In this document: positions 6,676 to 63,036 of the stretch, one piece after another
How the letters are laid out: the number at the start of each line of letters is the position of its first letter
Position numbering within the stretch: position 1 is the stretch's first letter
DNA from: a virus
IMG/VR virus record: IMGVR_UViG_3300042503_000983
Span: 1-64,000 of that record
Direction: 5' to 3' (one strand)
DNA: 64,000 nucleotides
The notes under the pieces: model-generated
Databases searched by the model: none
What the model saw: only the letters and a program-made list of their open reading frames with translations
What the model was told of the DNA's origin: nothing
Position numbers and translations under genes: made by a program

Positions 6676-6711
6676 ATCTATTTATAAATGATATAATAAG
6701 ATAGATATATT

Positions 6712-9531: not shown

Positions 9532-9614
9532 TAACTTTCATAAACATAGTATATAATTAAGTTAGGAAACGCCAATGCCCTACAAATTTAAGACTAAAAT
9601 TGAGGTGAAAAAAT

Positions 9615-10735: not shown

Positions 10736-11067
10736 ATCTTGCTGAGATAGAATCAAGAGTATTTCTTCTGGGATTCTGGAAGAACTATTCTGAACTGGAG
10801 GACTCTATATCAATGCCCGAACTGGTAGCAATACTAGAAGCTAAAAATAGTCAAGAATATGAAAGTAGAAAATTCATGGCAGCTTTACAGGGCGTTGATT
10901 TAGATAGTTCAGATACGTCTAAGAATAAATGGGAAGAGATAAAGGCTAGAGCTTTTAGCAAAGGTGCTACATCGAATCCTAGAGACATTCTTGCCCTTCA
11001 AGGCAAAGCTGCACAACGTGCTGGCTTTGGAATTGGAAATGGCTTGGATTATGAGGTGGTTAATTAA
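10696..11067 (+). CDS. Tail assembly chaperone -1 frameshift extension (GT-like)
   Basis: C-CCA-AAC at 10696-10702 is in correct phase; the -1 frame opens right after TGA 10693-10695 and runs to 11067. Confidence 0.8.
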   Translation, partial: PKRTGSGSSWDELDLAEIESRVFLLGFWKNYSELEDSISMPELVAILEAKNSQEYESRKFMAALQGVDLDSSDTSKNKWEEIKARAFSKGATSNPRDILALQGKAAQRAGFGIGNGLDYEVVN

Positions 11068-17000: not shown

Positions 17001-20000
17001 GGAATTAAAGACCAGTTAGTGCTTTCTGGATTTAAGGGAGATACTGCTCAGGCAGTTGCATCTAATGTAACAACTGATAGTATTTCAAATAAGCTGTTCC
17101 AAAAAGATATGGACAAGCTAGATCAAGCTCAAAAAGATGTAGTAACTGGAATTATGGCAAGCACTTTGGATGGAATAACTGAAGAAAATGCTGGAGCAAA
17201 AATTGGAGACATAACAGACATCTATGCAAAAATAGCAGATGAACTAGTTACAGCAGCAGCAGATGGCTTAACCTCAGAAGAAATTAGGGCTGAAGCAGAA
17301 AAGGAACAAATTAGAAAGTTTGCTGAATCTGCAGCATCTAATCTTGTGAACCTAACTCCTGAACAACAGGCTGCAAGAGCAAATACTATGGCAAGCAATG
17401 TTAGTGCTGCACTTCCTAATGTAAATAAGATGGGTGTCACTACTTCTCAACTAGTAAGTGGAATTTCAGGGGTAAGTGCAGAAGATCAAGCAAAGATAAC
17501 AGAGTCAACTGCTAATGTTGAAAAATTTGCACAGCTTTTAAATAGTCTTCCAGAAGGATATGACCTATCTCTAGCAATGGAATATTTCTCTGGAGATAAT
17601 AAAGAACAAGATGTAGATGCATTCTATAAAACACAAAAAGATGCTATTGATAAAATTGCAGAACTTATGCCAAAGGGAGCAGATGCTCAGGCAATCTATA
17701 CCGCACTCAAAGGACCTGGAAAAGATCCAGTTAAAGAGTTAGAGGCTGCAAATAAAAAAGCTCAAGAAATGTTTGATTCTCTAGGTGGAGATGAAGCTAA
17801 AGTAAAGAGCGTTGTATTTGAAAGTACTGGGTACGACATGACACAGGCAGAAGTAGATGCCTTTGGTGCACTTCCTGCAAGTGAGCAAAAATCATATTTA
17901 GCATCATTTACCATTGCAACTATGTCAGTTGGAAATGCACCAACTATTCCTCAGTCAGGAGCTCCTGCAGAAATGTCAGCCTACTACAAGAGACTAGAGG
18001 TTTGGAAAAAAGCTGTAGCAGATCAACAAAAAGCTATCCAGTCAGTAATTCCTCAGACAGTTGTTAATACTGATGACAACGGTAGTAGCTCTGGCGGAAC
18101 AAAGCCTCCTAGCAAAAAGGCTCAAGCAAAAACTTTCTTAAAAGATGCTACTACGAATAACAAAGTTCTTAAAAATTACACAAACCTAGTTAAAGGTGCT
18201 GCAACAGCTAACAATATAGAAGCCCTTAGCATGATTCCTCAAGATGTATACATGAATCTTTCTACTGAAAATAGAAAGAAATTGATTAAAGAAATGCAAA
18301 AGCAAATTGCGTATCAACAAAGATTAAATGCAGTAACAGTTTTAGCAGAAACTCAAAAAGCTACAGCAGATATGAAAAAATATTCAAAAGCACTTAACTC
18401 TTTGGGTGTTGTAATAACTTCAGATATCGAAGGAATGATTGACCAGAAAGCATTCCTTGCTATGACTACTGAAGAAAGAAAGGCATACATTGCAGAGCTG
18501 AATAAACAATCAGTAGCACAAGCTAAGCTAGCAGCAACTATGGCACTTGCAGATGCCAAAAAACAAACTAGCGATATGCAAAAATATTCTGCTGCACTAG
18601 GTGGACTAGGTGTTGCAATAAGCTCAGACATTGAAGGAATGATTGATCAAAAAGCATTCCTTGCTATGAACACTGCTCAAAGAAAAGCATATATTGCAGA
18701 GCTAAATAAGCAGACTTTGGCACAGGCTAAGCTAGCAGCTGCAATGGAAATTACAGACATGCAACAACAAACTCAAGAAATGCAAAATTACTTTAATGCA
18801 ATTTCTCCAATCGCTGCTGCTGCTGGGGCAGAAGTTTTGGGAATGATAGATACAGAAAAGTATCTTGCAATGACTACTACACAAAGGGAGGAATATGTAA
18901 AACAGCTAACTTCTCAGCTAAATGTTCAAAGAGCACTTGATTATTTAACACAGACTTCTCAAGAAAGAACAATGGATGCAATAGATGCAGAATCTTCAGC
19001 AATAAATATTAAGAATTCTGCATTACAAAACTCCCTTTCTGGAATGGAAAGAGAAAATGAGTTAATACAACGTCAAATAAGTTTAAGAAACCATGCTCTT
19101 GATTTGTTAGCAAAAGAAGAAGAAAAGATTAATACAACTTATGATGATAGAGTAAAGGCTCTTGATAAGGTTGCTAATGCAAATGATAGAATTGCTCAAA
19201 AAGATCGTTCAAGATTAGACCTAGCTTCAGCACTTGCATCTGGAGATATTTCTGCTGCAGCAGGTGCAGCAAGTGCAATGCAACAAGAAGAGGCACAGTT
19301 TAGAATTGAGGACGCAAGGGCAGCACTTGAAGCAAAAAGACAAAAAGAACTTGAATCGTTAACAGTTTCTGTAAATGGTGTAATGATGACAAGAAAGCAA
19401 ATTACAGAACAAATATCTCAGTTTGGTGAGACTATTTACAAAAATGAACAAGACATGATTTTAATTCAAGACCAACTTTATGCTAACTCTCTTGCACAAA
19501 AAGTACTAGATGATCAAAGAATGAAGTTAGAACAGCAAGTTTTGTTAATAAAAATGAGACAAAATATTGAAGCCTTAAGAGCACAGGGGTTAACTGGTCA
19601 AGCTTTAATAGATTTTCAAAATTATATTGATGCCTATAATACCCTTCAGGCAGCAGCTGCAGCAGCTGACATTGGAAATCCTGGAGCTGCTGCAAATACA
19701 ACATTGGGTGCTGGTGGCGGAGGAGGAGCTGCTGCAGTAATTGCTGCTCCAACTCCTGTAGCTGCTGTAACTCCAGTAACTCCACCACCACCGCCTCCTC
19801 CACCACCGCCTCCTCCACCACCTCCACCGCCACCACCTCCACCGCCACCACCGCCACCACCACCTGTTTATAGCTATTATACAAAAGCTCAATTCAATGC
19901 TGGAATAAAAGACTCAAAAGTTTCTTATGGAAATGGAAGTGAGCAGCATTACATAGCCAGAAAGTTGGGCTATTCGAATCCAACTGCTAGAACAGTAAAA

Positions 20001-20474
20001 GCAGACGAGATGGACAATGTTTATTGGGCTCTTTCAGAAGCAAGAAGGCAAGAGATTACAGAGTTAGTAAAAGAAGCAAGAGCCTCTACATCAAAAGCAT
20101 TTTCTGGATATAACAGTGGAGGTCTTGTTGCAGGACCTGGAAATACTGACAGTATATCTGCAATGCTCACCCCTGGAGAATTTGTAGTAAGAAGATCTAT
20201 GGTGGATAAATATGGAATGTCACTGCTTGAAGCAATAAATATGGGTGCTTTTAAAATGCCAAACATGCAGGAGCCTAAGTTTAGCTTTAGTGATTCTGGA
20301 AGATATGATACTGGAATTAGTGATGCAAGAGTTACTGAAACAATGTATAATAATGTATATAACTTAAATGTTAATGTTGCTGGAACAGATGCCTCACCAG
20401 ACGATATTGCAAATGTAGTTATGGCAAAGCTTTCACAGCAAAATAGAGGAAATTTAAGGAGCAATAGATACTAA
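11067..20474 (+). CDS. Tape measure protein, 3135 aa, with internal cargo domains
   Basis: N-terminal TP901-like TMP region, hydrophobic segments, coiled coils, three TD(T/S)xxAMLTPGEFV motifs. Confidence 0.95.
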   Translation: MAGVAKGIIDIQINTGSAAAELKKLQLQINSFNSALSKGNLAQAKFATDYTRDLSKAINSTGVFTSEFVKLNSAAANLDNTLKRGRGTLGQFFSSAFNRNSAAFAETMSLAARRASTLQTQFISTGASAQGMGEALAIRPLDAYASKAAIAAERQALLNTMFRQGTTHMINFGKNVQWAGRQLMVGFTVPLTVLGTVAGKTFMDIEKELVNLKKVYGDAFTTPEEVNQNIAQVRQLAEEYTKYGIAVKDTIGMAANAAASGARNADLIDATRQATRLATLGQMEQQEALKTTIALQSAFRLSGEDLADTINFLNMVENQTVVSLQDLSAAIPRVAPVIKGLGGDVRDMSVFLAAMQEGGVSAEQGANALKSGLASLINPTKAATETLGSFGINLDKIISTNRGDLMGTVFAFGEALKGLDDFSKQQALEKVFGKYQYARLGALFENIVRDGSQASQVLQLMEYDVAALKTTAEKELSAVENALGTQLIGAVERLKLSLEPIGEIFVKLAIPFVNFLTTIVEKFNGLSDGQKKFAAIAAVLVGVVIPAGTMFLGLLINLLGTLGKISHGIAIFVKSLIKGGPIAAIRTLTQSTKYLSIEELEAATAAKQLSSATHIAKAAMLEQATSTDIARIAVAKLTAEYRTLISAQAQAAAFNPAFKTAGMAGAAAGAGKTGSVTVRALRRNAGGPIFVSGETQVPGVGNTDTVPAMLTPGEFVVNKEATAKNYALLDAINSGNKFNKGGMIPGYNLGSMVLRNSQARNQAIKERYLRMFGPEAQAKGISLEERFGNLSLLSRQDRIKNQRALKPKNVTARRTSPNQQRAQQDVQEGPIRNVQSVGNAPQSVIDELTADLVALGAPANVMGEKARLITPTPRYKREGPALEGDTSYGKEFDFNNSLRRGVSNPNLGVARKEMEDLFALNPQLHGTSTPVSPFKHILDEANLDPAHYSRIDSALRSKAIEIVKRSPESHKFSDPEYGRIIVDSLRAANLSTILQERLLSTARIMNTEIGSRSMKRFEPYIKDSIRFSDTGGIHPKFEPVPNAPRGGTYIYTASDGTRVEINAGQSRPIPGRLSYSNQRYNAGRTYNNAHAEVQDFNAGGAVGGMQYFGRMMPNRVVAKNQFEKFSGTKIAESEGHSSRFRSLAGVYEVNGRKMFVKPFQTLQEAQAELIGNAARRAIAGTATPGSRIVRMDGPEGEIFATTAPMIPGMKSGSTLSTKELVKQIPASSMLGDMDATAGNIISTRGGRLATIDPGAAGVKLIRNSKGVFRRATGSEISFGNEATNTGAYTAKAITQVIEKTGASKDFVKMLGDSIAREKLTKAQFTKMYDDAVESAIARVSSFKLPSRIGDRSKLDELARASGYKNADEAYSAIMLRDLTSIRGLSGEIYTSASRFQGVLKANSGTLVPGVGNTDTVPAMLTPGEFVINKDATAKNLPLLQAINNGETRRYGLGDYVNPLGSLTNAQRIKGIRPSASYQQSRSATGYNVFSGMGSAEKIAPVQAALKTGPKYILDAYKESGKAISDAAKPMLTSFKDTSKSVANGANNLKNSIKDYGKWNVVPRMQDAKQAVANTRAAMGTPEAKALRAERMQKAGQGMMMASMIPMMASGFVEDPKQQQMMMAAGGAMAILPMLQQFGPILGGLTLAVGAAAAGFLMFKKDMDNTAKSAAEFGSNLGGAANRMETISAATGYGFASTRSSVQDFRFTEEQSQGAAEMMPFFDTDEGKKLVEDLKGASSEERYEKVASMLTFAIADGMDPKKAESFGSAIAFALDDSLLKSKTVALIRSGRLQSGSQAMISEISKRQAAADSSTVSDFEKAKAEEAKRNNTAGTSSNVKYGGIGLAAGLGAGVAIAASTAKLAAMGGAIGSVVPVVGTAVGAVAGAVVGLVAGIAVYNLAIKNQQKQVAESSKSFGATIQTLKELNNAESLLNEERSKGLITDTQFESSLKQINEMRQVEYERVKKAIDIGASADAQAQGIKDQLVLSGFKGDTAQAVASNVTTDSISNKLFQKDMDKLDQAQKDVVTGIMASTLDGITEENAGAKIGDITDIYAKIADELVTAAADGLTSEEIRAEAEKEQIRKFAESAASNLVNLTPEQQAARANTMASNVSAALPNVNKMGVTTSQLVSGISGVSAEDQAKITESTANVEKFAQLLNSLPEGYDLSLAMEYFSGDNKEQDVDAFYKTQKDAIDKIAELMPKGADAQAIYTALKGPGKDPVKELEAANKKAQEMFDSLGGDEAKVKSVVFESTGYDMTQAEVDAFGALPASEQKSYLASFTIATMSVGNAPTIPQSGAPAEMSAYYKRLEVWKKAVADQQKAIQSVIPQTVVNTDDNGSSSGGTKPPSKKAQAKTFLKDATTNNKVLKNYTNLVKGAATANNIEALSMIPQDVYMNLSTENRKKLIKEMQKQIAYQQRLNAVTVLAETQKATADMKKYSKALNSLGVVITSDIEGMIDQKAFLAMTTEERKAYIAELNKQSVAQAKLAATMALADAKKQTSDMQKYSAALGGLGVAISSDIEGMIDQKAFLAMNTAQRKAYIAELNKQTLAQAKLAAAMEITDMQQQTQEMQNYFNAISPIAAAAGAEVLGMIDTEKYLAMTTTQREEYVKQLTSQLNVQRALDYLTQTSQERTMDAIDAESSAINIKNSALQNSLSGMERENELIQRQISLRNHALDLLAKEEEKINTTYDDRVKALDKVANANDRIAQKDRSRLDLASALASGDISAAAGAASAMQQEEAQFRIEDARAALEAKRQKELESLTVSVNGVMMTRKQITEQISQFGETIYKNEQDMILIQDQLYANSLAQKVLDDQRMKLEQQVLLIKMRQNIEALRAQGLTGQALIDFQNYIDAYNTLQAAAAAADIGNPGAAANTTLGAGGGGGAAAVIAAPTPVAAVTPVTPPPPPPPPPPPPPPPPPPPPPPPPPPPPVYSYYTKAQFNAGIKDSKVSYGNGSEQHYIARKLGYSNPTARTVKADEMDNVYWALSEARRQEITELVKEARASTSKAFSGYNSGGLVAGPGNTDSISAMLTPGEFVVRRSMVDKYGMSLLEAINMGAFKMPNMQEPKFSFSDSGRYDTGISDARVTETMYNNVYNLNVNVAGTDASPDDIANVVMAKLSQQNRGNLRSNRY
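19782..19865 (+). repeat. Poly-proline run (28 Pro) in TMP
   Basis: Uninterrupted CCA/CCG/CCT codons. Confidence 0.95.
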
Positions 20475-32990: not shown

Positions 32991-35900
32991 ATGACTTACG
33001 TTCCACTACACGTTCACACACACTACTCTCTAATGGATGGTGTTGCAACTCCAGAAGAGTATGCAAAACGTGCTTCTGAAATTGGGCTATCAGCAATAGC
33101 AATAACTGACCATGGCGTTCTGTCTGGTCATAGACCTATGTACAGGGCTGCAAAAGCAAATGGCATTAAACCAATTTTAGGAATTGAAGGATACATAACT
33201 GCAGACAGATTTGATAACAGAGATAAGTCTGAAAGAACAGATCCCCTAGACATGGTATATAACCATATTGTTCTTCTTGCAAAAAATGACAAGGGTTTAG
33301 AAAATTTAAATAAACTTAATGAACTTGCTTGGACTGAAGGATATTATAGAAAGCCAAGAATTGACTTTGAAATCCTATCAAAGTATAAAGAGGGAATTAT
33401 AGTTTTATCAGCATGTATGAGTGGACTTCTTGCAAAAGCAATTGAGCATAAAGAATATGCTGCTGCTAAAAAACACATGACCTGGTTTAAAGAAACTTTT
33501 GGTGAAGATTTTTATGTAGAAGTTATGCCACATAACTCTGCAGAATTAAATAAAGAACTTCTTGAAATGGCTGATATCTATGATGTAAAGCCAGTAGTAA
33601 CTCCTGACTGCCACCACTCTGATAAAAGCCAAAAGGTCATTCAAGAAATGATGCTACTTTTAAATACACACGCAAAGATTAATAAAGAATCTACTTTTGA
33701 TAAGGCTTCAAAGATTGAAGACCCAATGAAAAGACTTGACTATTTGTACGGTGAAGATAGAATAATGTCTTTTAGAAGTTTTGACATTCACTTACTTTCT
33801 TATGAAGAGATTAAATCAGCAATGCAACAACAAGGTATTAAGCGTGAAGACATTTATGAAAATACTGTTGAGATTTCAAATAAGGTAGAAGAGTATACTA
33901 TTAAGAGTGGCTTAGACCTGCTTCCAATAAACGTTGAAGATCCAGATAACGAGCTGCTCGCACTTGCATCTAGAGGACTAGTCTTAAAAGGTTTGTCTGA
34001 AAACAAGGAGTACTTAGATAGATTAAATCTAGAACTTGATGTTATCAAGAGTAAAAACTTTTCACCATACTTTTTAGTTGTTCATAATATGCTTAACTGG
34101 GCAAAAGATCAGGGTATCATGGTGGGTCCAGGTCGTGGTTCAGCAGCAGGTTCTTTGGTTTGTTATGCGTTGGGAATTACAGAAATTGATCCAATTGAAT
34201 ACGGTCTTTTGTTTTTCCGTTTTATTAATCCAGATAGAGATGACTTCCCTGATATTGATTCTGATATTGCAGATGATAGAAGAGATGAAGTAAAAGCATA
34301 TCTTGAACGTGAATATAAAAACGTTGCATCCATTGCTACATTCCTTGCATTTAAAGATAAAGGTGTTGTTAGAGATGTTGCTAGAGCTTTCAACATTCCC
34401 CTTAATGATGTTAACAAGGTTCTTAAGGGTGTAGACAGTTGGGATGATTTTACAAGGTCAACCAATGCTCAATGGTTTAGAATGAAGTATCCTGAAATTG
34501 TTAAGTATGGAGAGCAACTGCGTGGAAGAATTCGTGGAACTGGAATTCATGCTGCAGGTGTGGTTACTGCAAAAGATTCAATCTTTAAATATGCCCCACT
34601 TGAAACAAGAATTGCACCAGGAAGCAAGGAAAGAATCCCTGTTGTTGCAGTTGATATGGAAGAGGCTGCAGAGATTGGACTAATTAAGCTTGATGTTTTG
34701 GGTCTCAAAACCCTAACTGTAATTGACCAAACTATTAAAACAATTAAAGAACGTCACGGAATTGATATTGACTTAAAGAAAATACCCCTGAATGACAAGA
34801 AAGTCTTTGAGATGCTCTCTGAGGGTCGTACAAAGGGTGTCTTTCAATGTGAAGCAACTCCTTACACAAATCTATTAGTTAAAATGAGAGTTAATAATTT
34901 TGACGAACTAGTTGCATCAAATGCACTGGTTAGACCAGGTGCTATGAATACAATTGGAAAATCATATATTGCTCGTAAGCATGGCAGAGAGATGGTTGAA
35001 TACATTCATCCCTCTATGAATGATTATCTAAAAGATACTTATGGATGTGTTTTGTATCAAGAGCAAGTTATGCAAGCCTGTGTAGTTCTTGGTGAAATGA
35101 CAATGGTTGAAGCTGACAAAGTTAGAAAAATTATTGGTAAGAAAAAAGATGCTAAAGAGTTTGACATATTTAAAGATAAGTTTGTTAAGAATGCAGAAAA
35201 GCATATTGGAATTAGAGCAAGTGATCTTTGGCACGACTTTGAAGCACACGCTGGGTATTCTTTTAATAAGTCTCACGCTGTTGCCTATTCCACACTTTCT
35301 TATTGGACTGCTTGGCTGAAGTATCATTACCCTATTGAGTTTATGTTTTCATTGTTAAAGAGTGAAAAAGATAGTGACACCCGTACTGAATATTTAATTG
35401 AATCTAAACGCATGGGGCTATCTTTAAAACTTCCTCACATTAATGAGTCTGACTCAGATTTTAAAATTGAAGGTAAGGGTATTAGATTTGGACTTGCTGC
35501 AATTAAGTGGCTTTCTGAAGGAGTAGCAACTAAGATTATTTCAGGCAGACCCTTTGAATCTAAAGAGCAGTTTAAAAAATTTGCAATGCAAAAAGGTAGT
35601 GGAATTAATTCAAGAGCAGTAGAGGCACTAGATCTTATTGGTGCTTTAACATTTGAAGATAACCCTAGAAATGAAGTTAAGGTAAGAGAAAATCTTTATG
35701 AATATCTAAATCTTCCAGAACTAAATACAAGTGTTCCACAACATTATTATGCATACATAGATCTTGTAGAAGACTTTGATGAGCAAGGTGTTTTTGTTTT
35801 GCTTGGTATTGCAAAGAACATTAAGCGTGGCAAGGGTTGGTCAAGAGTAGAGATCATGGACTCTACTGGTGTAATTGGAATATTTGATGATGAAGAGACT

Positions 35901-36260
35901 AAGATTGAGCCAGGAAGAACTTATCTAATCCTTGCAGGTGCAAATAGAATTTCTGAAGCTATTCCAATTGATGAATTAAAAGACCATAAGGAAAGTCCTC
36001 TTATAAAGTTTTTAAACTATAAGCAGATTCCATTTGCAAACGATGAGCACTTTGTGCTATCATTTACTCCTAGAGTTACTAAGGCTGGAAAAAGAATGGC
36101 TAACATGATTGTTGCTGACAGTTCAAGAGAGATGACTGCTGCAATGGTGTTCCCAACAATGTTCTCTACTGGATATATGAAGTGTCAGCCTGGAAAAGTA
36201 GCAAAGATTAATTTTGGTGAAACAAAAGAAGGAACTATTACATTGAAGGAAGTATTATAA
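32991..36260 (+). CDS. dnaE: DNA polymerase III alpha subunit
   Basis: PHP domain HVHTHYSLMDG and ITDHG; GRGSAAGS; PDIDSD; KLDVLGL; FNKSH; no intein-sized insert. Confidence 0.97.
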   Translation: MTYVPLHVHTHYSLMDGVATPEEYAKRASEIGLSAIAITDHGVLSGHRPMYRAAKANGIKPILGIEGYITADRFDNRDKSERTDPLDMVYNHIVLLAKNDKGLENLNKLNELAWTEGYYRKPRIDFEILSKYKEGIIVLSACMSGLLAKAIEHKEYAAAKKHMTWFKETFGEDFYVEVMPHNSAELNKELLEMADIYDVKPVVTPDCHHSDKSQKVIQEMMLLLNTHAKINKESTFDKASKIEDPMKRLDYLYGEDRIMSFRSFDIHLLSYEEIKSAMQQQGIKREDIYENTVEISNKVEEYTIKSGLDLLPINVEDPDNELLALASRGLVLKGLSENKEYLDRLNLELDVIKSKNFSPYFLVVHNMLNWAKDQGIMVGPGRGSAAGSLVCYALGITEIDPIEYGLLFFRFINPDRDDFPDIDSDIADDRRDEVKAYLEREYKNVASIATFLAFKDKGVVRDVARAFNIPLNDVNKVLKGVDSWDDFTRSTNAQWFRMKYPEIVKYGEQLRGRIRGTGIHAAGVVTAKDSIFKYAPLETRIAPGSKERIPVVAVDMEEAAEIGLIKLDVLGLKTLTVIDQTIKTIKERHGIDIDLKKIPLNDKKVFEMLSEGRTKGVFQCEATPYTNLLVKMRVNNFDELVASNALVRPGAMNTIGKSYIARKHGREMVEYIHPSMNDYLKDTYGCVLYQEQVMQACVVLGEMTMVEADKVRKIIGKKKDAKEFDIFKDKFVKNAEKHIGIRASDLWHDFEAHAGYSFNKSHAVAYSTLSYWTAWLKYHYPIEFMFSLLKSEKDSDTRTEYLIESKRMGLSLKLPHINESDSDFKIEGKGIRFGLAAIKWLSEGVATKIISGRPFESKEQFKKFAMQKGSGINSRAVEALDLIGALTFEDNPRNEVKVRENLYEYLNLPELNTSVPQHYYAYIDLVEDFDEQGVFVLLGIAKNIKRGKGWSRVEIMDSTGVIGIFDDEETKIEPGRTYLILAGANRISEAIPIDELKDHKESPLIKFLNYKQIPFANDEHFVLSFTPRVTKAGKRMANMIVADSSREMTAAMVFPTMFSTGYMKCQPGKVAKINFGETKEGTITLKEVL

Positions 36261-39977: not shown

Positions 39978-39993
39978 AGGATATAATGATATT

Positions 39994-40146
39994 ATGAAAA
40001 TGTACACTAATGAAAATTGGCTTAGAAAAAGATTCTTAATGGATAAAAAAACTCCAGAAGAGATTGCAAAAGAATGTGGAGTTTCACTTGAAACTATATA
40101 TGTTTATCTTGGTAAGTTTGGATTGAGAAAGAGTAGAAGGAAGTAA
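39994..40146 (+). CDS. Small HTH protein (50 aa, not in ORF track)
   Basis: KTPEEIAKECGVSLETIYVYL; upstream TTGACT-17-TATTAT. Confidence 0.75.
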   Translation: MKMYTNENWLRKRFLMDKKTPEEIAKECGVSLETIYVYLGKFGLRKSRRK

Positions 40147-45440: not shown

Positions 45441-45454
45441 GATATAATGTAGTT

Positions 45455-46660
45455 ATGAGTATTATCAAGGCTGATGAGTGGGAGGGTGAACCCCTTTACA
45501 ATATGCTTTCAGAAGATGAAAAGGCTTTTGCAGACTCATTACTAAAATTAACAGAAGACGTTGGACCACTAGATCAATCAGAGGGTATCTGGATTGGATA
45601 TGAAGATGGTGCTAATAATGAAAATCTTTCAATTGGTGTTAAGTGTGGAAACTGTGCTCTTCACAAATCTGCTATTGCTTGTGCAATAATTTCACAACAG
45701 ATTGAAGAAAATGGTATTTGTAGACTTGCAGTAATTCCAGACGGATATGTAAATTCTGATATGAAAAATTCTGGAGAAGAGTTTGAAGAAATGAATCCTG
45801 AAATGTATAAGTCTGATAATGAAGATGAAGATAAGTGGGACAACCTAGAAAAGAAATGCTGGGTTGGATACAGACAAGATGGAATGAAAGAAAAGAATGG
45901 AAGAATGGTTCCAAACTGTGTACCAGTTAAAAAATCAGAAGATGGCGTTCTTGGAAATGATGACACTCCAAATAAAAATCCTCACAGCATGGAAGATTGT
46001 ACAGATAAAAATTGTCCAGAGCATCATATGGGAAAGAAAGATTACTCTGATAAAGAAAGACAGATGCTAGCTCGTAGAGACATGGCTTTACCTGATGGAT
46101 CTTTTCCAATTGTTACGGTGGCAGATTTAAGTAATGCAATTCAAGCAGTTGGACGTGCCTCAAATTACTCAAGGGCTCGTAATCATATCATTAGAAGAGC
46201 CAAAGCCCTTAACAGAGAAGACTTACTTCCAGAAGATTGGAAGCCAAAGTCTGCAAGAAAGTCTTTTGAAATTGAAAAAAGAGATGTATCAGATATTGAT
46301 TTAAAGCCAACTGAAACAATGGCTAACAATGCAAAAAGAGGTCTTGAGCTTAGAGCTAAGTTTGGTAGAGGTGGAACTGCAGTTGGAGTTGCTCGTGCTC
46401 GTGATCTAAGTAACCGTACAAATCTAAGCCCAGAAACTGTTGCAAGAATGTATTCTTTTTTCTCAAGACATGAGGTAGATAAAAAGGGTAAAGATTGGGA
46501 CAATGCAGAGCGTCCATCAAATGGTAAGATAGCCTGGCTACTCTGGGGTGGAGATGCTGGATATGCTTGGTCAACACAAAAATGGAAAGCTATTCAAAAT
46601 GCAAGAGCATCTAAATCAGATGACACTTGGAAAGACTCACCATTTTCTTTTTATAAATAA
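45455..46660 (+). CDS. Multi-domain protein (HiPIP-like Cys4, CWxGY..VPNC, LPDGSFPI and WLLWGG modules), possibly a capsid-internal polyprotein
   Basis: Leaderless start; modules separated by xxK[SAKR] linkers. Confidence 0.7.
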   Translation: MSIIKADEWEGEPLYNMLSEDEKAFADSLLKLTEDVGPLDQSEGIWIGYEDGANNENLSIGVKCGNCALHKSAIACAIISQQIEENGICRLAVIPDGYVNSDMKNSGEEFEEMNPEMYKSDNEDEDKWDNLEKKCWVGYRQDGMKEKNGRMVPNCVPVKKSEDGVLGNDDTPNKNPHSMEDCTDKNCPEHHMGKKDYSDKERQMLARRDMALPDGSFPIVTVADLSNAIQAVGRASNYSRARNHIIRRAKALNREDLLPEDWKPKSARKSFEIEKRDVSDIDLKPTETMANNAKRGLELRAKFGRGGTAVGVARARDLSNRTNLSPETVARMYSFFSRHEVDKKGKDWDNAERPSNGKIAWLLWGGDAGYAWSTQKWKAIQNARASKSDDTWKDSPFSFYK

Positions 46661-47710: not shown

Positions 47711-47924
47711 TCTAAATAAAATGGAATCAATAGTAGGTAACAACCCTTCTTTAAAATGGGAAGGTTGGAGCGTAGTATTTATTGAAGAGGATGGAGATGC
47801 TAACTTGAAAAAGAATGCAGCCTTCATTGACTCTAAGTGGCACAAGAAGATTGTGTTTGAAAATATTGATGGGGTATGGGATATTCCAGACTCTATATTA
47901 AGGAAGGGCGATGTACAAGTTTGA
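47697..47924 (+). CDS. Hypothetical protein
   Basis: Overlapping operon gene; WEGW...GVWDIP. Confidence 0.65.
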   Translation: MKISDLNKMESIVGNNPSLKWEGWSVVFIEEDGDANLKKNAAFIDSKWHKKIVFENIDGVWDIPDSILRKGDVQV

Positions 47925-48192
47925 TGAAAAAGCTTTATGCCTTAATATGGATACAAATCTTTTCTTTGATCAATATGAAGAAAATCCAGAAGTTTCAAAA
48001 AAAGTAGATCTTTTATGTATAAAATGTCCAGCACAAAGACAGTGCCTAGCTTATGGAGTCAGTAATTCTGAGTGGGGTGTTTGGGGCGGTGTTTACCTAG
48101 AAGGTGGAAAGATATCTAAAGAGTTTAACAGTCATAAAGAAAAGACTGACTGGTTTAATGTTTGGTCTGGAATAACTTTGGAAAATAGCTAA
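47911..48192 (+). CDS. whiB: WhiB-family Fe-S transcription factor
   Basis: C...LFF...CxxCP...C...GVWGG. Confidence 0.92.
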   Translation: MYKFDEKALCLNMDTNLFFDQYEENPEVSKKVDLLCIKCPAQRQCLAYGVSNSEWGVWGGVYLEGGKISKEFNSHKEKTDWFNVWSGITLENS

Positions 48193-48924: not shown

Positions 48925-49434
48925 GTGAATAAAGTTTGTTATAAATGTAAAGAAGAAAAGTCTATAGATCTTTTTTATAAGAAAAGCTCTACTAAAGATG
49001 GACTTACGTCTCATTGTAAAAAATGTATAAATTTATATAACTCTGAAAAGAAAGAACAAAAAAGAGAGTATGACTATTACTATCGTATAAGAAATAGAAA
49101 ACGAATTAAAAAAGTTAAAGACCTTTATTATTTAAATAATCATGAGTTGTATAGAGATAAAGCTCATGGTCGCAGAGCTAAAGTAAATCAAAATGGAGTT
49201 TTTAAAATACTTAGAAAAGAACTAAAAAGGTTGTATAGCTCACCATGTTTTTATTGTGGATCATTAAATAAAATTACTATAGATCATGTTATTCCAATCA
49301 GCCGTGGTGGAACTCATGGAATAGGAAATTTGGTTGCAGCCTGTGCTTTTTGCAACAGAAGTAAAAATAAAAAGTTTTTAATTGAATGGAAGAGAGATTT
49401 GACATTTTTAAAGAATTCTGGTAAAGTAGATTAA
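48925..49434 (+). CDS. Free-standing HNH endonuclease with N-terminal zinc finger
   Basis: CYKC..CKKC; CFYCG..DHVIP..GG...NLV..C..CN..K. Confidence 0.9.
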   Translation: MNKVCYKCKEEKSIDLFYKKSSTKDGLTSHCKKCINLYNSEKKEQKREYDYYYRIRNRKRIKKVKDLYYLNNHELYRDKAHGRRAKVNQNGVFKILRKELKRLYSSPCFYCGSLNKITIDHVIPISRGGTHGIGNLVAACAFCNRSKNKKFLIEWKRDLTFLKNSGKVD

Positions 49435-49607
49435 TGCCAGTATATTTATATGCATGTGAAAAATGCGAGGATAACAAAGAGTTGGTAAAGGGTATGAATG
49501 ACCCTGATCCAATAATTTGTCCAGATTGTAGTAGTAACATTAAAAGAATTTTTGGTGTAGGTGGAATTCAATTTAAAGGAAAAGGCTTTTATAGCACAGG
49601 AGGATAG
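49434..49607 (+). CDS. FmdB-family zinc-ribbon protein (57 aa, not in ORF track)
   Basis: MPVYLYACEKC...CPDC...FKGKGFYST. Confidence 0.88.
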   Translation: MPVYLYACEKCEDNKELVKGMNDPDPIICPDCSSNIKRIFGVGGIQFKGKGFYSTGG

Positions 49608-49608
49608 T

Positions 49609-49767
49609 ATGTTAAAGAATAGAGGATTTCAATACGACTTCTTTGCAGAAGAGTGGTCATTTGATTGTAGTGCATGTGGAGAAAAACTTTATGCTCCAAC
49701 CAAAAAACACATGGAAGGTAATTTCTGGATTCATACTCACTCAGATGATTGTTTAGGTGGATGGTAA
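49609..49767 (+). CDS. Small zinc-binding protein
   Basis: RBS GGAGG; CSAC...HTH...C. Confidence 0.65.
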   Translation: MLKNRGFQYDFFAEEWSFDCSACGEKLYAPTKKHMEGNFWIHTHSDDCLGGW

Positions 49768-50033
49768 TGAATAAAGAAGAACTTGAAGAAGCACTTTCAT
49801 ATATAGATGAAGAAGTTATGGTAATGGATGGTTTTGAAGAAGCATTTATAGGACTATCCTTAAGATGTGGTCAGCCAACTCTTGCAACATACTCGTGGCA
49901 AAAAATGGTAGATGTTTTAATGGACAGAGATGACATGGAATATGAAGAGGCAGTAGAATACATTTCTTACAACTGCCTTGGTGCTTGGATGGGAGAACTT
50001 ACCCCAGTTGTAGTTCTACCTTTGGAGTTTTAA
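49767..50033 (+). CDS. Phage hypothetical protein
   Basis: DGFEEAFIG...EEAVEYISYN..GAWMGE.TP. Confidence 0.75.
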   Translation: MNKEELEEALSYIDEEVMVMDGFEEAFIGLSLRCGQPTLATYSWQKMVDVLMDRDDMEYEEAVEYISYNCLGAWMGELTPVVVLPLEF

Positions 50034-50152
50034 TGTCTGATAAAAAAGAAGTATTTAATCAATGCTATATGTGTGAAGAAATGTTTATAGACATACTAGA
50101 TTTAATCAATCACATTAAGACAGTACACAAAAATGAAACAGGAGTTTTTTAA
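50033..50152 (+). CDS. 39-aa classical C2H2 zinc-finger protein (not in ORF track)
   Basis: CYMCEEMFIDILDLINHIKTVH fits C-x2-C-x3-F-x5-L-x2-H-x4-H; TAATG-coupled at both ends. Confidence 0.75.
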   Translation: MSDKKEVFNQCYMCEEMFIDILDLINHIKTVHKNETGVF

Positions 50153-50331
50153 TGTCATTAGTTGCAAAAATTAAACAAATGTTGAAAGAGTACCAAGAAG
50201 AAAATGGAACTCTTGATGATAAAGAATATGAAAAGTTATTTGTGCATTTTTATTTACAGCATGAAGATGAGTACTTAAAGAAAAGAATTAGCTCTATTAG
50301 ATCAGATGGAAAAAGTAGGAACTTTAGATGA
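50152..50331 (+). CDS. Hypothetical protein (59 aa)
   Basis: Coupled overlaps on both sides. Confidence 0.6.
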   Translation: MSLVAKIKQMLKEYQEENGTLDDKEYEKLFVHFYLQHEDEYLKKRISSIRSDGKSRNFR

Positions 50332-50609
50332 AAGTTAGAATAAGCAAGAGAGAGTATTCAGACTATATCGAAAACGATACAGACATTGCCCTTGCAGCAG
50401 AGATGGCTGTTATAGTTGCAAAGTCAAACCCGATGGTTATTGGAGAGCCTGTTGCTGAAATTAGTCCAGGATGTCCTATGGGATATGCCAGACCAAAAGT
50501 AATTCTGAACTATGATATTATTAACCCTAGTGCCTTTGATAAATTAAAAATGATTTTAACAGGAAAATCTTTAAATGATATTGTCAAAGAAATCAAGGGA
50601 GAAGTTTAA
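50328..50609 (+). CDS. Hypothetical protein
   Basis: ATGA overlap. Confidence 0.6.
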   Translation: MKVRISKREYSDYIENDTDIALAAEMAVIVAKSNPMVIGEPVAEISPGCPMGYARPKVILNYDIINPSAFDKLKMILTGKSLNDIVKEIKGEV

Positions 50610-50852
50610 ATGGATTTTGAATTACATCATGAAAAAGATGCTGGACCAATAGTTCGTTGGTTTGCAAATAAAATGTTAATCCTGTTGCATAAGGTTGAAA
50701 AGCCTTTGTATGACTATGCAGATATGTATACAGCAGTATGGGATGACTATGAAGAAGATGTGGATCTTTATACTCCTCATAATCAAATGGCATTCTTTGA
50801 TAACCTTGAACCACTGCCTCAGTTTGAGCACTTAACAGATGACCTACTATAA
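50610..50852 (+). CDS. Hypothetical protein
   Basis: RBS GGGAG; tightly packed. Confidence 0.6.
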   Translation: MDFELHHEKDAGPIVRWFANKMLILLHKVEKPLYDYADMYTAVWDDYEEDVDLYTPHNQMAFFDNLEPLPQFEHLTDDLL

Positions 50853-51049
50853 TGTGCGATGAAGTTTATTATTATAAAGATCAGGTAAGAGAGCTTCAAG
50901 CTATTAATGGTTTTGTTAAAAGAAACACCTTGCTTTCTGTGCAAAGTAGAATAGAATATGTTAGAGACGAACGAGTCAAATTAGGATTACCAGTTCATGG
51001 TGTCGCTATGGCTCTTGAAATAGTTAGGACAATGTTGAATGAAAAATAA
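50852..51049 (+). CDS. Hypothetical protein
   Basis: TAATG coupling. Confidence 0.6.
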   Translation: MCDEVYYYKDQVRELQAINGFVKRNTLLSVQSRIEYVRDERVKLGLPVHGVAMALEIVRTMLNEK

Positions 51050-51260
51050 AAAAGAAGTAAAAGATGCAAGAACAATAATTTATGAAAACAATTTATACAC
51101 AGTAGATGAGTTTGTTAATAAATATTCTCAAGCTTTAAAGTCATATTTACTTACAAGACAACTTGGAGATAAGAGCAAGAAGTCTCACATAGTTGATCTT
51201 GCGGTAGAAAATGCATCCTTTGCAGAATCTCTTTATATTTCAGTGGATAGTTTTAGATAA
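51039..51260 (+). CDS. Hypothetical protein
   Basis: Overlapping operon gene. Confidence 0.55.
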   Translation: MKNKKEVKDARTIIYENNLYTVDEFVNKYSQALKSYLLTRQLGDKSKKSHIVDLAVENASFAESLYISVDSFR

Positions 51261-51403
51261 TGTTTCTTACAAAGATGATTAGGTTTGCAGAAAAAATTGG
51301 CATGGACGTAGACGAACTTATGGAAATGACAGTCCTTGATGCCATAATGAAAATAGAAGATACAAGAACAATGTGGGCAGAATTAAAAAAGGATATTGGT
51401 TAA
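51260..51403 (+). CDS. Hypothetical protein (47 aa)
   Basis: TAATG coupling; fills the gap before the ftsZ promoter. Confidence 0.55.
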   Translation: MFLTKMIRFAEKIGMDVDELMEMTVLDAIMKIEDTRTMWAELKKDIG

Positions 51404-51417
51404 GGTATAATACTTAT

Positions 51418-52356
51418 ATGAATAAAATAATTGACATAAAGGTAATAGGATGCGGTGGCGGTGGAGTAAATGCCGTTAATAGCATGATCACTTCTGGTCT
51501 GTCTGGAGTAGAGTTTATTGGAATAAATACAGATGCTCAAGCACTTCTACCAAGCTTAGCAGATGTAAAAATTGATATTGGAAAAGATAGAACTCGTGGT
51601 CTTGGTGCAGGTGCAGATCCAAACATTGGTAGGCTTTCTGCAAAAGACAGTGTAAATGAAATATCCGAAGTTGTTCATGGTGCAGACGTTGTTTTTGTAA
51701 CTGCTGGAATGGGTGGTGGAACTGGAACTGGTTCTGCTCCAATAGTTGCTAACTGTGCTAAAAAGGCTGGTGCATTAACTGTAGGCGTTGTAACTACCCC
51801 ATTTGCATTTGAGGGAAAGAAAAGAATGAACAATGCCTTAGAAGGAATTAATAGTTTTAGTAAGGAAGTTGACACCCTTATAGTTATTCCAAATGAAAAT
51901 TTAATTCAGATGCTTGATCCAAATATTTCTATGGAAGATGCATTTAAAGAGGCTGATGACGTTCTTCTTAAAGCAGTAGCAGGTATTTCAGATCTAATTA
52001 CTACACCTGGTCAAATTAATATTGACTTTGCAGATATAAAAAGGGTAATGAAAGATGCTGGTTCTGCTTTTATGGGAATTGGATACGCAGAGGGAGAGGA
52101 TCGTGCTGAAGTTGCAGGTAATAAAGCAATTACTAGCCCTATTCTTAATGTTGATTTGCATGGTGCTACTGGTGTCCTAATTTCAATCGCATCCTCTGGT
52201 CAAATAAAGATGCAAGAAGTAAATAAAATTGCATCCCTTGTAGGAGATAAGGCACACGAAGATGCTGATATTATTTTTGGAACAGTTTTAGATGAAGATT
52301 TAGAAGACGGAATTTTAGTAACGGTAGTAGCTACAGGATTTGTTGGCAGTGAATAA
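51418..52356 (+). CDS. ftsZ: FtsZ homologue lacking the C-terminal linker and peptide
   Basis: GGGGVNAV, NTDAQAL, GLGAGA, AGMGGGTGTG, PFAFEG, NIDFAD, VVATG then stop; TATAAT 6 nt before ATG 51418. Confidence 0.95.
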   Translation: MNKIIDIKVIGCGGGGVNAVNSMITSGLSGVEFIGINTDAQALLPSLADVKIDIGKDRTRGLGAGADPNIGRLSAKDSVNEISEVVHGADVVFVTAGMGGGTGTGSAPIVANCAKKAGALTVGVVTTPFAFEGKKRMNNALEGINSFSKEVDTLIVIPNENLIQMLDPNISMEDAFKEADDVLLKAVAGISDLITTPGQINIDFADIKRVMKDAGSAFMGIGYAEGEDRAEVAGNKAITSPILNVDLHGATGVLISIASSGQIKMQEVNKIASLVGDKAHEDADIIFGTVLDEDLEDGILVTVVATGFVGSE

Positions 52357-53086
52357 TTTAGTAGAAAAAAATACTCAATACGGATACATGTCTTATTTTA
52401 AAAATGATATGGCATTTGCAGATAGCCTAAATGCTGGACAAGTTTATGAACAAGACTTTGTAATGGAATTTTTGCAGGACGTAGTTAAGTCTAGTAAAAC
52501 TATTTTAGATATAGGATCCCACGCTGGATCTCATACAGTATTATATAAGCATATAAATCCAGATTGTAAAATATACTGCTTTGAACCTCAGTCAGAAATG
52601 TTCAAACTACTTGAGCATAATATTTCTAAAAACTCTTTTAAAGATGTTATTGCTCATAACAAAGGGGTAGCCAATGTAGCAATTAAATCAAGCATGAGCA
52701 AGTCCGTTCTTGATGGTGATAATGTTGGAAAAGCTATTGAGTATGGGACTGGTAAAAGATTTAATTTAGGTGGGCTACAGGTAGGAAATGGTGGAGAAGA
52801 AATTGAAACCCTTACTGTTGATAGTTTAAATCTTACTGAGTGTGACTATATTAAAATTGACGTTGAAGGCTTTGAACCACTTGTTTTGATGGGGGCAGAA
52901 CAAACAATAAAAAAGTTTAAGCCAACTATATTGTTTGAGTCTAATCACAAGGTTATTTCAAAAGAAATGGCTGAAAGTTTTGGACTTTCTTATCCAGTAG
53001 CAAGTTCATTTGACATCTTAAAATCGTATGGGTATAAAGACATAGTTTTAATTGACGGTCTTTGGAATTATTTAGCTAGGTATTAG
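52349..53086 (+). CDS. FkbM-family methyltransferase
   Basis: LDIGSHAG, CFEP, IKIDVEGFE..VL.GA; overlaps the ftsZ stop. Confidence 0.9.
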   Translation: MNNLVEKNTQYGYMSYFKNDMAFADSLNAGQVYEQDFVMEFLQDVVKSSKTILDIGSHAGSHTVLYKHINPDCKIYCFEPQSEMFKLLEHNISKNSFKDVIAHNKGVANVAIKSSMSKSVLDGDNVGKAIEYGTGKRFNLGGLQVGNGGEEIETLTVDSLNLTECDYIKIDVEGFEPLVLMGAEQTIKKFKPTILFESNHKVISKEMAESFGLSYPVASSFDILKSYGYKDIVLIDGLWNYLARY

Positions 53087-53094
53087 GTTAATAT

Positions 53095-53997
53095 ATGCTA
53101 TTTGATAATACAGGAAAAAATGTTGTAAACAATTTAAATGAAAACTATATTAGAAAAACCCTTGTTCCGTTAAAACACCACTTTAATTTTTCTGAAACCA
53201 AACTATTGTACGATGAAAAAGATTTATATTTTAACATGAGCTTAATCTCTTTTGAAAATGAACTTCACTATGCTGTTAGAGGAGGTCACAAACATATTGG
53301 AAAAATGTATTTACATCCAGAGTTTACTAGCACTGTTCATGTTGGAGTAGTTGACGAAGCTATAAAAAATAGAAGGCAGATAAATGTTACATTCCCTAAA
53401 GTAAAAAATGGAACACTTGGAATGGAAGACCCTAGAATATTTGAATGGAAAAACAAACTATTCTTTTCTGGAGACATTCCTTTTAACTTAAGAGGCAGAA
53501 GTCAAAAAAATGCTTTTGTAAATATTGAAACTAATGAGTGTGAAGTTTTTGTAGACCCACTCAATAGAAAGATGAGTAAAAATTGGATGCCATATGTAAA
53601 TGAAGATAATCTTTATTTTGTTATTGATGTTTTACCAACAAGAATTTTAGACACAAAAACAAGGAAGGCTCAGGCTTATAATGATAAGGTTGTTACAAAC
53701 ACACCAGTCTATGGTGGTCCAAGAATTATAAACATAGATGGGATTAAAACTTCAATCGTTCATGGAAGAGCTAACAATGCTTACTGGCACTCTATAGCTC
53801 AGTGGGATGATAATTGGAATTTAAAAATTTCTGATCCTTTTTATTTTACCAAGCCTGGAGTTGAATTTTGCACAGGATACGAAGTTCATAATGGAAAACT
53901 ATATTTTACATATTCAGAGTATGATGATGGAGTTGTGTTGTGCAGCATAGATCTTGATTCATTTTTAAATAGTGCTATTTGGAGCAGAAATGTTTAA
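53095..53997 (+). CDS. Beta-propeller glycoside hydrolase/phosphorylase-like protein (GH130/GH43-like)
   Basis: GMEDPRIF, KNWMPY, VEFCTG. Confidence 0.65.
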   Translation: MLFDNTGKNVVNNLNENYIRKTLVPLKHHFNFSETKLLYDEKDLYFNMSLISFENELHYAVRGGHKHIGKMYLHPEFTSTVHVGVVDEAIKNRRQINVTFPKVKNGTLGMEDPRIFEWKNKLFFSGDIPFNLRGRSQKNAFVNIETNECEVFVDPLNRKMSKNWMPYVNEDNLYFVIDVLPTRILDTKTRKAQAYNDKVVTNTPVYGGPRIINIDGIKTSIVHGRANNAYWHSIAQWDDNWNLKISDPFYFTKPGVEFCTGYEVHNGKLYFTYSEYDDGVVLCSIDLDSFLNSAIWSRNV

Positions 53998-54754
53998 AGA
54001 AATAGATTATAACAAGCACTTTGTTATTGGTACACCGCTCGTTGGATGGAAAGTTGACAGAAAAGAACACCTTGCCTGGATTCAAGATAGTAAAGAAATA
54101 TTGGAAAGGTTTCCAAATGCAAAATTTTTTGCTGCTCTTGAGTTAGACTCTAGAGGAGAACAAGTTTTTTATGAAATTATAGATAGACTAAAAGATATAG
54201 ATGGAGAGTATTGGACGTACTCAATAAATGATAAGGAAAGTATAGTTACCTCTTATAATAGATGGATAAGAATTGAAACTGGTAGAAATCTTATTAGAGA
54301 GTTTGCACAAAGACATAGAAAAATGTCAGGACATCATTGGGGAGAAAATTCTTCAAAAGAAAATAAGGGTGCAATAAACTATGATGCAATTTTATATGTT
54401 GATTCAGATACAATAGTTAATGTAGAAATTATTGAAAAAATGATGGAAATAGATCATCCAGTTGTAAGCGTAAACGTACCAGCTTATGGTTTAAAAGGTA
54501 AAGTTATAAATGAAAATCCAAGAATAGAAGAGCATTGGAATACTGCTGGAATGTTATTAGTAAATTCTCCAGCTTTTTATGACCTTTCTTGGGGGTATAA
54601 TGCTATAGAAAATTTGAGTGACGATCCAACTTTTCAAAACCATGCAGAAAGACTTGGATATGGGCAAACTTGGGTTAGGAAAGACATCAATGCAAAGCAT
54701 ATTGGAAAATTACTTCCAGTAGAAAATAGAAGAATTCCTCCTAGAGATCTATAG
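53990..54754 (+). CDS. GT-A fold glycosyltransferase-like protein
   Basis: GRNLIR, ILYVDSD (DxD), TAGMLL, SDD, late His. Confidence 0.7.
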   Translation: MFKEIDYNKHFVIGTPLVGWKVDRKEHLAWIQDSKEILERFPNAKFFAALELDSRGEQVFYEIIDRLKDIDGEYWTYSINDKESIVTSYNRWIRIETGRNLIREFAQRHRKMSGHHWGENSSKENKGAINYDAILYVDSDTIVNVEIIEKMMEIDHPVVSVNVPAYGLKGKVINENPRIEEHWNTAGMLLVNSPAFYDLSWGYNAIENLSDDPTFQNHAERLGYGQTWVRKDINAKHIGKLLPVENRRIPPRDL

Positions 54755-59527: not shown

Positions 59528-59600
59528 TCCCCAATAGCTCAATCGGCAGAGCGTCAAACTGTTAATTTGAATGTTCCTAGTTCAAGTCTAGGTTGGGGAG
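59528..59600 (+). tRNA. tRNA-Asn(GTT)
   Basis: Acceptor TCCCCAA/TTGGGGA; anticodon arm TCAAA-CTGTTAA-TTTGA; T loop TTCAAGT; no encoded CCA. Confidence 0.93.
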
Positions 59601-59604
59601 CAGC

Positions 59605-59661
59605 AGTATATGTTTGTCAGTTGCATATACTCCCACATGTTAGATGGCATGGCAAACTGAC
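59605..59661 (+). ncRNA. Pseudoknot-like element between two tRNAs
   Basis: AGTATATG/CATATACT stem; loop GTCAGTT can pair with AACTGAC at 59655-59661. Confidence 0.5.
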
Positions 59662-59664
59662 TTC

Positions 59665-59737
59665 CCCCGATTAGCTCAGTGGATAGAGCGATAGGTTTCT
59701 ACCCTACAGGTCAGGAGTTCGAATCTCTTATCGGGGA
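59665..59737 (+). tRNA. tRNA-Arg(TCT)
   Basis: Acceptor CCCCGAT/ATCGGGG; anticodon loop TTTCTAC; GTTCGAATC; no encoded CCA. Confidence 0.92.
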
Positions 59738-59766
59738 CTCAAAAATAGATATATAATAGAATTACT

Positions 59767-62323: not shown

Positions 62324-62851
62324 TTAAGAATGTAAAATATCTATTGGATAATCACATTGAGGAGAATTCTTTATAGCACTATCTAAAGCTGTCTTTATTT
62401 TCTTTATAGGATCTTTCCAGGTATATGAAGTATCTAATGATCCTATTGCAAAACTATTACCAGATCCAATAGCTGTATATTTATCATATTCATTTACTTG
62501 CCAGTCATTAGTAGATATATTAAATAATCTTCCATGAATTCCCACCAAAAAATCTGCAGCAGCTTTGTCATCATCTGATATATCAATACCATATGGATCT
62601 ATAGCTTTTTTCAGGGTAAGAATAAAATCTGTTCTCATATATTTATCTACATCCTTTTTAACTACATTAGGAAAATCAATATAATGAGCTACTTGTCCAG
62701 ATCCCCTTGAAGAAGCATAACCAATTAAGAATTGTCCATTCTTTTTTATTTTCGGGGTAATAGGAGAAGATATAGAATATTCATCAGACATACCTCTATC
62801 TGATCCCATATAGACAATACCATTATCTATGAGTCCAATTACTATAGTCAT
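62324..62851 (-). CDS. Ntn-hydrolase, HslV/proteasome-beta-like
   Basis: M-T start, GSD, PKI, AIGSG; leaderless (TATAAT 6 nt upstream). Confidence 0.8.
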   Translation of the reverse strand: MTIVIGLIDNGIVYMGSDRGMSDEYSISSPITPKIKKNGQFLIGYASSRGSGQVAHYIDFPNVVKKDVDKYMRTDFILTLKKAIDPYGIDISDDDKAAADFLVGIHGRLFNISTNDWQVNEYDKYTAIGSGNSFAIGSLDTSYTWKDPIKKIKTALDSAIKNSPQCDYPIDILHS

Positions 62852-62959
62852 AATACTATTATACTCTCTCTTCCTTGATTTTAAAAATATTGAAAAATGG
62901 GCGATTTAAAAGGTCGTTCTTAATCTTATTTGACAAAATTAAATTTGTGTGCGCCCACT

Positions 62960-63036
62960 TGGTGGGGTGGGTCAGGCTCGAACTGACGACTACTGAATTA
63001 TGAGTTCAGGGCTCTAACCAACTGAGCTACCACCCC
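62960..63036 (-). tRNA. tRNA with CAT anticodon, probably Ile2 (lysidine) rather than Met
   Basis: GGGGTGG/CCACCCC-A-CCA; CTGAA-CTCATAA-TTCAG; lacks initiator features. Confidence 0.88.

Follow-up and report, generated by a model that had tools for sequence, protein, structure and literature searches.

One clade of lake-water phages encodes a genuine FtsZ that ends at the GTPase core, and the gene is cut at the same point and strongly conserved across this widespread clade. What is otherwise known from phages is small inhibitors that target FtsZ, or tubulin relatives that are very distant. No true FtsZ family was found among the PHROGs, and a full-text search of the literature outside supplements and subscription journals found no account of a phage-encoded genuine FtsZ. 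The explanation that we prefer, and to which we give about as much credence as doubt, is that the anchor-less protein co-assembles with the host FtsZ and disables the Z-ring.

A complete FtsZ core that stops before the tail

The window, by which we mean the whole stretch of DNA analysed, covers bases 1-64,000 of one 72,942-base contig and has a G+C content of about 35%. The record is classified as linear, with a completeness of about 68%. The features at and around the gene are as follows.

49434..51260 (+), block of small early-type ORFs, found together with ftsZ in related phages and missing from the sister clade that has no ftsZ
51260..51403 (+), 47-aa ORF that belongs to no known family and is found in synteny with ftsZ in 36 of the ~39 loci with room for it
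51418..52356 (+), ftsZ-like gene for a 312-aa FtsZ core (ORF translation; Pfam, NCBIfam and PDB matches)
52354..52356 (+), TAA stop codon; translation ends here, at the end of the core
52388..53086, or from TTG 52340 (+), FkbM-family methyltransferase, first gene of a variable cassette

The reading frame is open throughout and gives 312 aa without an internal stop. The ORF list had placed the start at GTG 51373; this was set aside for ATG 51418, which is the start used by the homologues, and their start codon lies mostly one codon past an in-frame stop. Pfam Tubulin (PF00091) matches residues 7-166, the GTPase domain (E 2.1e-46), and FtsZ_C (PF12327) matches residues 215-308 (E 3.3e-29). FtsZ chains in the PDB match residues 4-308 with E values down to 8e-113, the best of them being M. 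tuberculosis-type chains. The first-pass annotation had called the protein a true FtsZ rather than one of the PhuZ/TubZ type, and the profile scores agree. The NCBIfam ftsZ model TIGR00065 gives 390.6 bits against an equivalog cut-off of 295.2 (profile positions 18-324 of 353), which is more than ten times the score of the only PHROG match, that to PhuZ (phrog_4733, E 8e-7, 29.4 bits). None of the 54 PDB sequences matched at E <=0.001 is a PhuZ or TubZ chain. These proteins are also phage-encoded GTPases of the tubulin/FtsZ superfamily, and they are described as acting in jumbo phages or partition systems (PMC7824862).

The GGGTGTG signature and the T7 loop NIDFAD, from which a complete GTPase core had been proposed, are both in place. 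Within the T7 pattern N-x-D-x-x-D, residues N201, D203 and D206 are invariant across phage and cellular rows, and the G-box, T3, T4, T5 and T7 motifs are likewise invariant in the phage/cellular alignment. In 84 cellular FtsZs, 131 positions show at least 95% conservation; the phage consensus matches 116 of these, and the changes at the other 15 are mostly conservative. The protein, which is small and looks soluble, is thus predicted from its sequence to keep all that is needed for GTP binding and hydrolysis and for head-to-tail stacking. It ends as had been claimed, VVATG-FVGSE, which is four residues past ATGF, and has neither a linker nor a C-terminal peptide.

The contig is a metagenome assembly, only 68% complete, which leaves room for an artefact: the assembly may have fused host DNA to phage DNA, the gene may be a pseudogene, or a frameshift may mask a normal tail. 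We consider this very improbable. Contigs from runs X4 and X6, neither of which was flagged as a possible source, span 52014-53100 with 0 differences and 0 gaps, the stop codon is crossed unchanged by independent contigs of runs X4, X5 and X6, and no indels are listed in the contigs of 4 independent public runs. With the stop and the junction both bridged by independent contigs, the concern that an assembly chimera or a hidden frameshift had produced the short protein falls away and the truncation is real. The FkbM gene overlaps the ftsZ stop or begins right past it, depending on which start is taken, so there is no frame in which a tail could be encoded; the frames downstream encode the methyltransferase instead. 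Base composition is flat across the ftsZ region, which also argues against joined host DNA.

Conservation and distribution of the gene among phages

The rest of the contig is that of a phage. PHROG matches identify structural genes (portal, head maturation protease, capsid and a tail protein) and replication genes (a DnaB-like helicase, primase, SSB, a UvsX/RecA-like recombinase and a Cas4-type exonuclease). Features outside the ftsZ region include the following.

2556-4163, portal (PHROG match)
4214-5611, head maturation protease (PHROG match)
5636-6631, capsid protein (PHROG match)
11067-20474, 3,135-aa ORF in the tail module, taken as a giant tape measure
32991-36260, DnaE-like polymerase (PHROG match)
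47902-48189 (+), WhiB-like transcription factor (Pfam Whib, 45.1 bits against a cut-off of 23.6)
59528-59738 (+) and 62960-63036 (-), three tRNA genes (Asn-GTT, Arg-TCT, Met-CAT)

The description of the gene as phage-encoded is upheld by the capsid, portal, protease, DnaE and WhiB genes on the same contig. The closest cultured phages are Streptomyces phages of ~126-135 kb, with 39.6% identity in the capsid and 51% in DnaE, and WhiB, according to PMC10202952, is confined to Actinobacteriota and serves to recognize actinophages. DNA of the phage is present in lake-water and freshwater metagenome runs from several studies. Judging from habitat and GC content, our guess at the host is a low-GC freshwater actinobacterium such as a member of the Nanopelagicales; the FtsZs of that order (57-62% identity) are no closer to the phage FtsZ than those of other Actinomycetes. 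In lake metagenomes the contig depth peaks at 51692-51775, the region encoding GGGTGTG, with loose contig ends on both sides. The peak, and loose ends at 51691/51731 and near 52293-52307, are probably due to ftsZ genes of other organisms that share conserved stretches.

Truncation at this point is general among the homologues. Among the protein clusters listed as matches, all 120 of 120 are 307-314 aa long and 83-99% identical. In IMG/VR there are 40 homologous loci with 78-93% identity, on contigs of up to 101,664 bases, and the truncation is conserved in every one of them: all 40 stop 2-4 residues past ATGF (one is cut at its 5′ end). Cellular FtsZs with a complete 3′ end, by contrast, all have a tail, of 36-202 aa, ending in acidic-hydrophobic peptides that resemble D-[IV]-P-x-F-[LM]-[KR]; in this count L042, L044, L113 and L120 are incomplete at the 3′ end and seven minus-strand loci were skipped. 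The presence of the same gene in the same synteny on 40 viral contigs is a further argument against an artefact.

Selection on the gene was estimated from 24 distinct coding sequences, a set that leaves out L004-L007, L011, L015 and L017, in which the anchor pattern failed, and L040, which is cut at its 5′ end. The median dN is 0.067, the median dS 0.63 and the median dN/dS 0.097, with a range in dN/dS of 0.03-0.21 over 269 usable pairs out of 276. This ratio points to a selected protein and not a decaying fragment, and it too speaks against the gene being an artefact. Among the 25 phage rows, 192 of the 312 positions are invariant.

The gene lies at the boundary between a conserved block and a variable one. 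The whiB gene is 3.2 kb upstream of ftsZ in the same conserved block, and the order from whiB through the small ORFs to ftsZ is conserved in related phages; a profile search found no known families for the small ORFs. The two genes past ftsZ, FkbM and that for a 300-aa protein with a weak GH130-like match (together 52340-53997, +), occur in 1 of 40 loci. Other relatives have a different, usually longer cassette in this position, so the gene is conserved while the adjoining island is variable.

A search with a conserved gene farther downstream (53972-54754) as the query found 43 loci, and these separate bearers from non-bearers. The ftsZ gene is present in 24 of the 43, with a marker identity of 66.8-76%, and is truncated in 24 of these 24. 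Ten marker loci, each with 6.9 kb or more of DNA on the upstream side, carry no ftsZ and have a marker identity of 58-65%; most of these have whiB without any of the small-ORF block. The sister clade (L157, at 3500-9900; L158-L162, L169 and L171) has whiB and the conserved downstream gene and no ftsZ, and in place of the ftsZ block it carries an SSB-like gene and sugar/nucleotide-modifying enzymes. All 24 clade members with room for the gene have it. The ftsZ gene is a stable trait of one phage clade that is absent from its sister clade, and the clade that bears it consists of lake-water siphophages of ~70-100 kb.

A phage genome collection yielded 27 records with an FtsZ-like stretch (41.5-60.5% identity), none of which belongs to the phage FtsZ family. 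These records (H1-H27) are labelled as Listeria, Staphylococcus, Enterococcus or fecal 'Bacteriophage sp.', and many are short and unannotated; such short records may be host DNA under phage names.

Descent from the Actinomycetes and changes at the surface

The search for a donor covered 1.84 billion representative proteins, 600 stretches from species genomes (the best 80 of which are considered) and 201 genomes of the Planktophila order. Among the matches listed in these three sets there is no cellular FtsZ with more than 62% identity. The closest of the 1.84 billion representatives have 60-61% identity and actinobacterial tails. The best species-genome matches (best 80 of 597 confirmed) are from Actinomycetota at 59-62%, and lower matches among those listed include a Planktophila genome (57%), Rhodoluna (56%) and Bacillota (55-57%). 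In the Planktophila order, 198 of the 201 genomes have a match, with an identity of <=62% and, among the matches listed, frames of 368-418 aa. The top score among the representatives belongs to P0122, an 840-aa database protein with two FtsZ-like stretches that may represent either two FtsZs fused in tandem or an error of gene calling.

A quick tree of 109 rows united the 25 phage rows with a support of 100 and placed them outside the Actinomycetes, beside long outgroup branches. This placement was rejected as long-branch attraction, as both the constrained and the reduced trees disagree with it. When the phage rows were constrained to group with 56 Actinomycetes, the log-likelihood was 11.2 higher (p-AU 0.66). 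In a careful tree of 54 rows, from which the longest branches had been removed, the phage clade has a support of 100/100 and the split that joins it with the class Actinomycetes 98/99. This split excludes Acidimicrobiia, Thermoleophilia, Rubrobacteria, Bacillota and Chloroflexota, and it places the phage clade at the level of the class only. The stem of the phage clade in this tree is about 3.5 changes per column. For the trees, identical phage cores were collapsed and L113 and L120 (incomplete), L123 (the same gene as L104) and the minus-strand loci L121, L122, L124, L126, L128, L132 and L134 were omitted.

These sequence comparisons indicate that the phage ftsZ is a capture from a lineage of the class Actinomycetes, made long ago or followed by much later change. 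An identity of at most 62% among the matches listed together with the very long stem points to an old capture. The first-pass annotation had described a captured host gene; this holds for its descent, given the 98/99 split, and does not hold if a recent capture is meant, given the same identities and stem.

Compared with the FtsZ of cellular Actinomycetes (for example that of M. tuberculosis, PDB 1RLU/6YM9), the phage protein has the same two-domain core over residues 4-308, with ~60-62% identity, and shares all nucleotide-binding loops and the T7 loop. It differs in lacking both the linker and the C-terminal peptide that the cellular proteins have, and whereas cellular ftsZ stands in the division/cell-wall gene cluster, the neighbors here are phage genes. 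Some alphaproteobacterial FtsZs (A. tumefaciens FtsZ1 and those of Rhizobium meliloti and Magnetospirillum) are likewise truncated right past the GTPase core. They coexist with a full-length FtsZ, on which FtsZ1 of A. tumefaciens is reported to depend for its localization (10.1101/412759). However, they are chromosomal, dispensable and from another phylum, while the gene described here is viral and of Actinomycetes descent. Since the phage clade groups with the FtsZ of Actinomycetes, the two truncations are most likely independent (the trees contain none of these short alphaproteobacterial proteins).

Measured against the Actinomycetes consensus, the phage FtsZ has a different residue at 116 of 303 positions, and 34 of 225 positions that are conserved in Actinomycetes are fixed to another residue in the phage. 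Lateral contacts have been defined for the M. tuberculosis protein (PMC6050046), and we checked the numbering against residues named in that paper and against the PDB alignment. R229 of this protein is R in 54 of 56 Actinomycetes, and in the phage rows it is replaced by D (12), E (5), T (4) or S (3), these four commonest residues, none of them basic, making up 24 of 25. The residue at E87 is conserved in 53 of 56 Actinomycetes; the phage rows mostly have S (15), N (4), A (3) or G (1) there, and these four commonest residues account for 23 of 25. Two well-conserved lateral residues, R229 and E87, are thus lost. The position of E80 has K in 24 of 25 phage rows, and D301 is retained. This lateral set is post hoc, with three changes at four well-conserved positions picked from one paper. 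The alignment suggests that the lateral surfaces have been reshaped, with the nucleotide-binding and longitudinal motifs kept as they were.

Possible effects on the host cell

In the explanation that we prefer, the phage FtsZ would be made during infection from a strong leaderless promoter and would enter the filaments of the host FtsZ. Such mixed filaments, short of membrane tethers because core-only subunits dilute them and short of lateral contacts because of the altered residues, would not make a functional Z-ring. This would stop or delay septation, and the small host cell would keep growing and making phage. Phage WhiB can inhibit septation, according to work on mycobacteriophage TM4 cited in PMC10202952, and for this reason the phage may affect division through two genes: the WhiB of the same gene block may act on septation alongside FtsZ. 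The tether in question is SepF, which is described as attaching FtsZ to the membrane in Actinobacteria and as the only actinobacterial division protein known to bind the C-terminal peptide of FtsZ directly (10.1101/732925). No SepF gene was found in the record searched, which is a fragment about 68% complete.

A block of host cytokinesis is also the outcome of small FtsZ inhibitors that have been described from other phages, such as Kil of lambda, Gp0.4 of T7 and Hdi of T5. Those are short, unrelated peptides that bind FtsZ, whereas here the proposed agent is a modified copy of FtsZ itself. If the protein does co-assemble with the host FtsZ, it would be a new viral way to stop division, by supplying a defective subunit, and a natural experiment on the tail and on lateral contacts.

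C-terminal deletions of Caulobacter FtsZ are dominant. It had been stated at the outset, as a general rule, that tail-less FtsZ poisons division. In A. tumefaciens this is reported for deletion of the linker, which is dominant negative, and not for FtsZ that lacks the C-terminal peptide, which has no dominant effect; the naturally tail-less FtsZ1 co-polymerizes with full-length FtsZ and does so harmlessly (10.1101/412759). The rule is therefore not general, and a missing tail is not enough to predict poisoning. With 116 differences in 303 positions and so long a stem, compatibility with host filaments is not assured, and a function of its own would fit the divergence equally well. A complex prediction for the phage FtsZ with the FtsZ core of a Nanopelagicales-order bacterium scored 0.03 against a mark of 0.32, which speaks neither for nor against co-assembly. 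It counts against interference with division that the sister clade manages without ftsZ.

The divergence bears on the idea that the phage FtsZ polymerizes with itself into anchor-free filaments that position phage DNA, replication or assembly. Intact GTPase and T7 motifs make self-assembly plausible, the divergence and the fixed changes at lateral and other surfaces could insulate it from host filaments, such a role needs no membrane anchor, and phage tubulins offer a precedent (PMC3678025; PMC7824862). However, the known phage tubulins belong to jumbo phages or partition systems, while these phages are of ~70-100 kb and probably infect small cells. The neighborhood of ftsZ showed no recognizable partner, adaptor or centromere-like element, and FtsZ1 of A. 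tumefaciens, the closest architectural analogue, is reported to be unable to polymerize alone (10.1101/412759). We think such a viral cytoskeleton unlikely. If the protein does self-polymerize, it would be a second, independent origin of a viral cytoskeleton of the tubulin family. We are similarly doubtful of the broader proposal that viruses have domesticated FtsZ in bacteria that rank among the smallest and most numerous in fresh water, either for filaments of their own or for a phage-controlled Z-ring, so that the protein is no simple poison and the cytoskeleton is independent of PhuZ/TubZ. Whether by co-assembly or by self-assembly, the outcome bears on how phages handle very small hosts and on the mechanics of the actinobacterial Z-ring.

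The phage FtsZ might instead leave division running, at least in part, while it joins host filaments or binds factors that recognize the core of FtsZ. In that role it could adjust the synthesis of the septal wall, titrate a host regulator or protease, or hide the phage from defense sensing that is linked to FtsZ. Natural tail-less paralogues that co-assemble and are tolerated (10.1101/412759) agree with this, as does the ftsZ-less sister clade, which is what would be expected of an accessory function. A defense system has been described that senses a phage protein in complex with FtsZ (PMC13423816), so FtsZ is a contested target. On the other hand, strong selection and the presence of the gene in 24 of 24 clade members suggest more than a marginal role, and no candidate binding partner was identified. 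A modulator or decoy of this kind has, in our judgment, a rather small chance of being the answer.

For poisoning of the Z-ring, as in the preferred explanation, dose is probably decisive, and expression of the phage gene may be high. The upstream signal is the following.

51404..51411 (+), GGTATAAT, conserved -10-like box 6 nt upstream of the ATG, which is the leaderless distance

Within the box, TATAAT at 51406-51411 lies 6 nt ahead of ATG 51418. Each of the 21 distinct upstream sequences has GGTATAAT, 5-7 nt and then ATG or GTG, without variation in the box; among them are L029, L032, L038 and L039, whose farther upstream DNA is unrelated. The loci left out are the same eight as for dN/dS. 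A consensus promoter scan gave 15 sites against 12.3 expected in AT-rich DNA, which is not above chance, and the window contains 5 copies of GGTATAAT where 2.1 are expected, a weak excess that 7 of 100 shuffles reached. Since the consensus scan by itself is uninformative, the case for a promoter rests on conservation. Leaderless transcription is common in Actinobacteria and the conserved box at ftsZ fits it; the leaderless promoter noticed in the first-pass annotation is thus supported as a signal in the DNA. The same layout of TATAAT, six nucleotides and ATG is found at other starts, at 45443-45457 (+), 39982-39996 (+) and 62849-62868 (-), with box/ATG pairs at 45443/45455 (+) and 62863/62851 (-). 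As TATAAT stands exactly 6 nt before ATG at these further gene starts, the layout suggests that leaderless transcripts are a general feature of the phage. A separate GGTATAAT box is located at 59459, about 60 nt upstream of the first tRNA gene.
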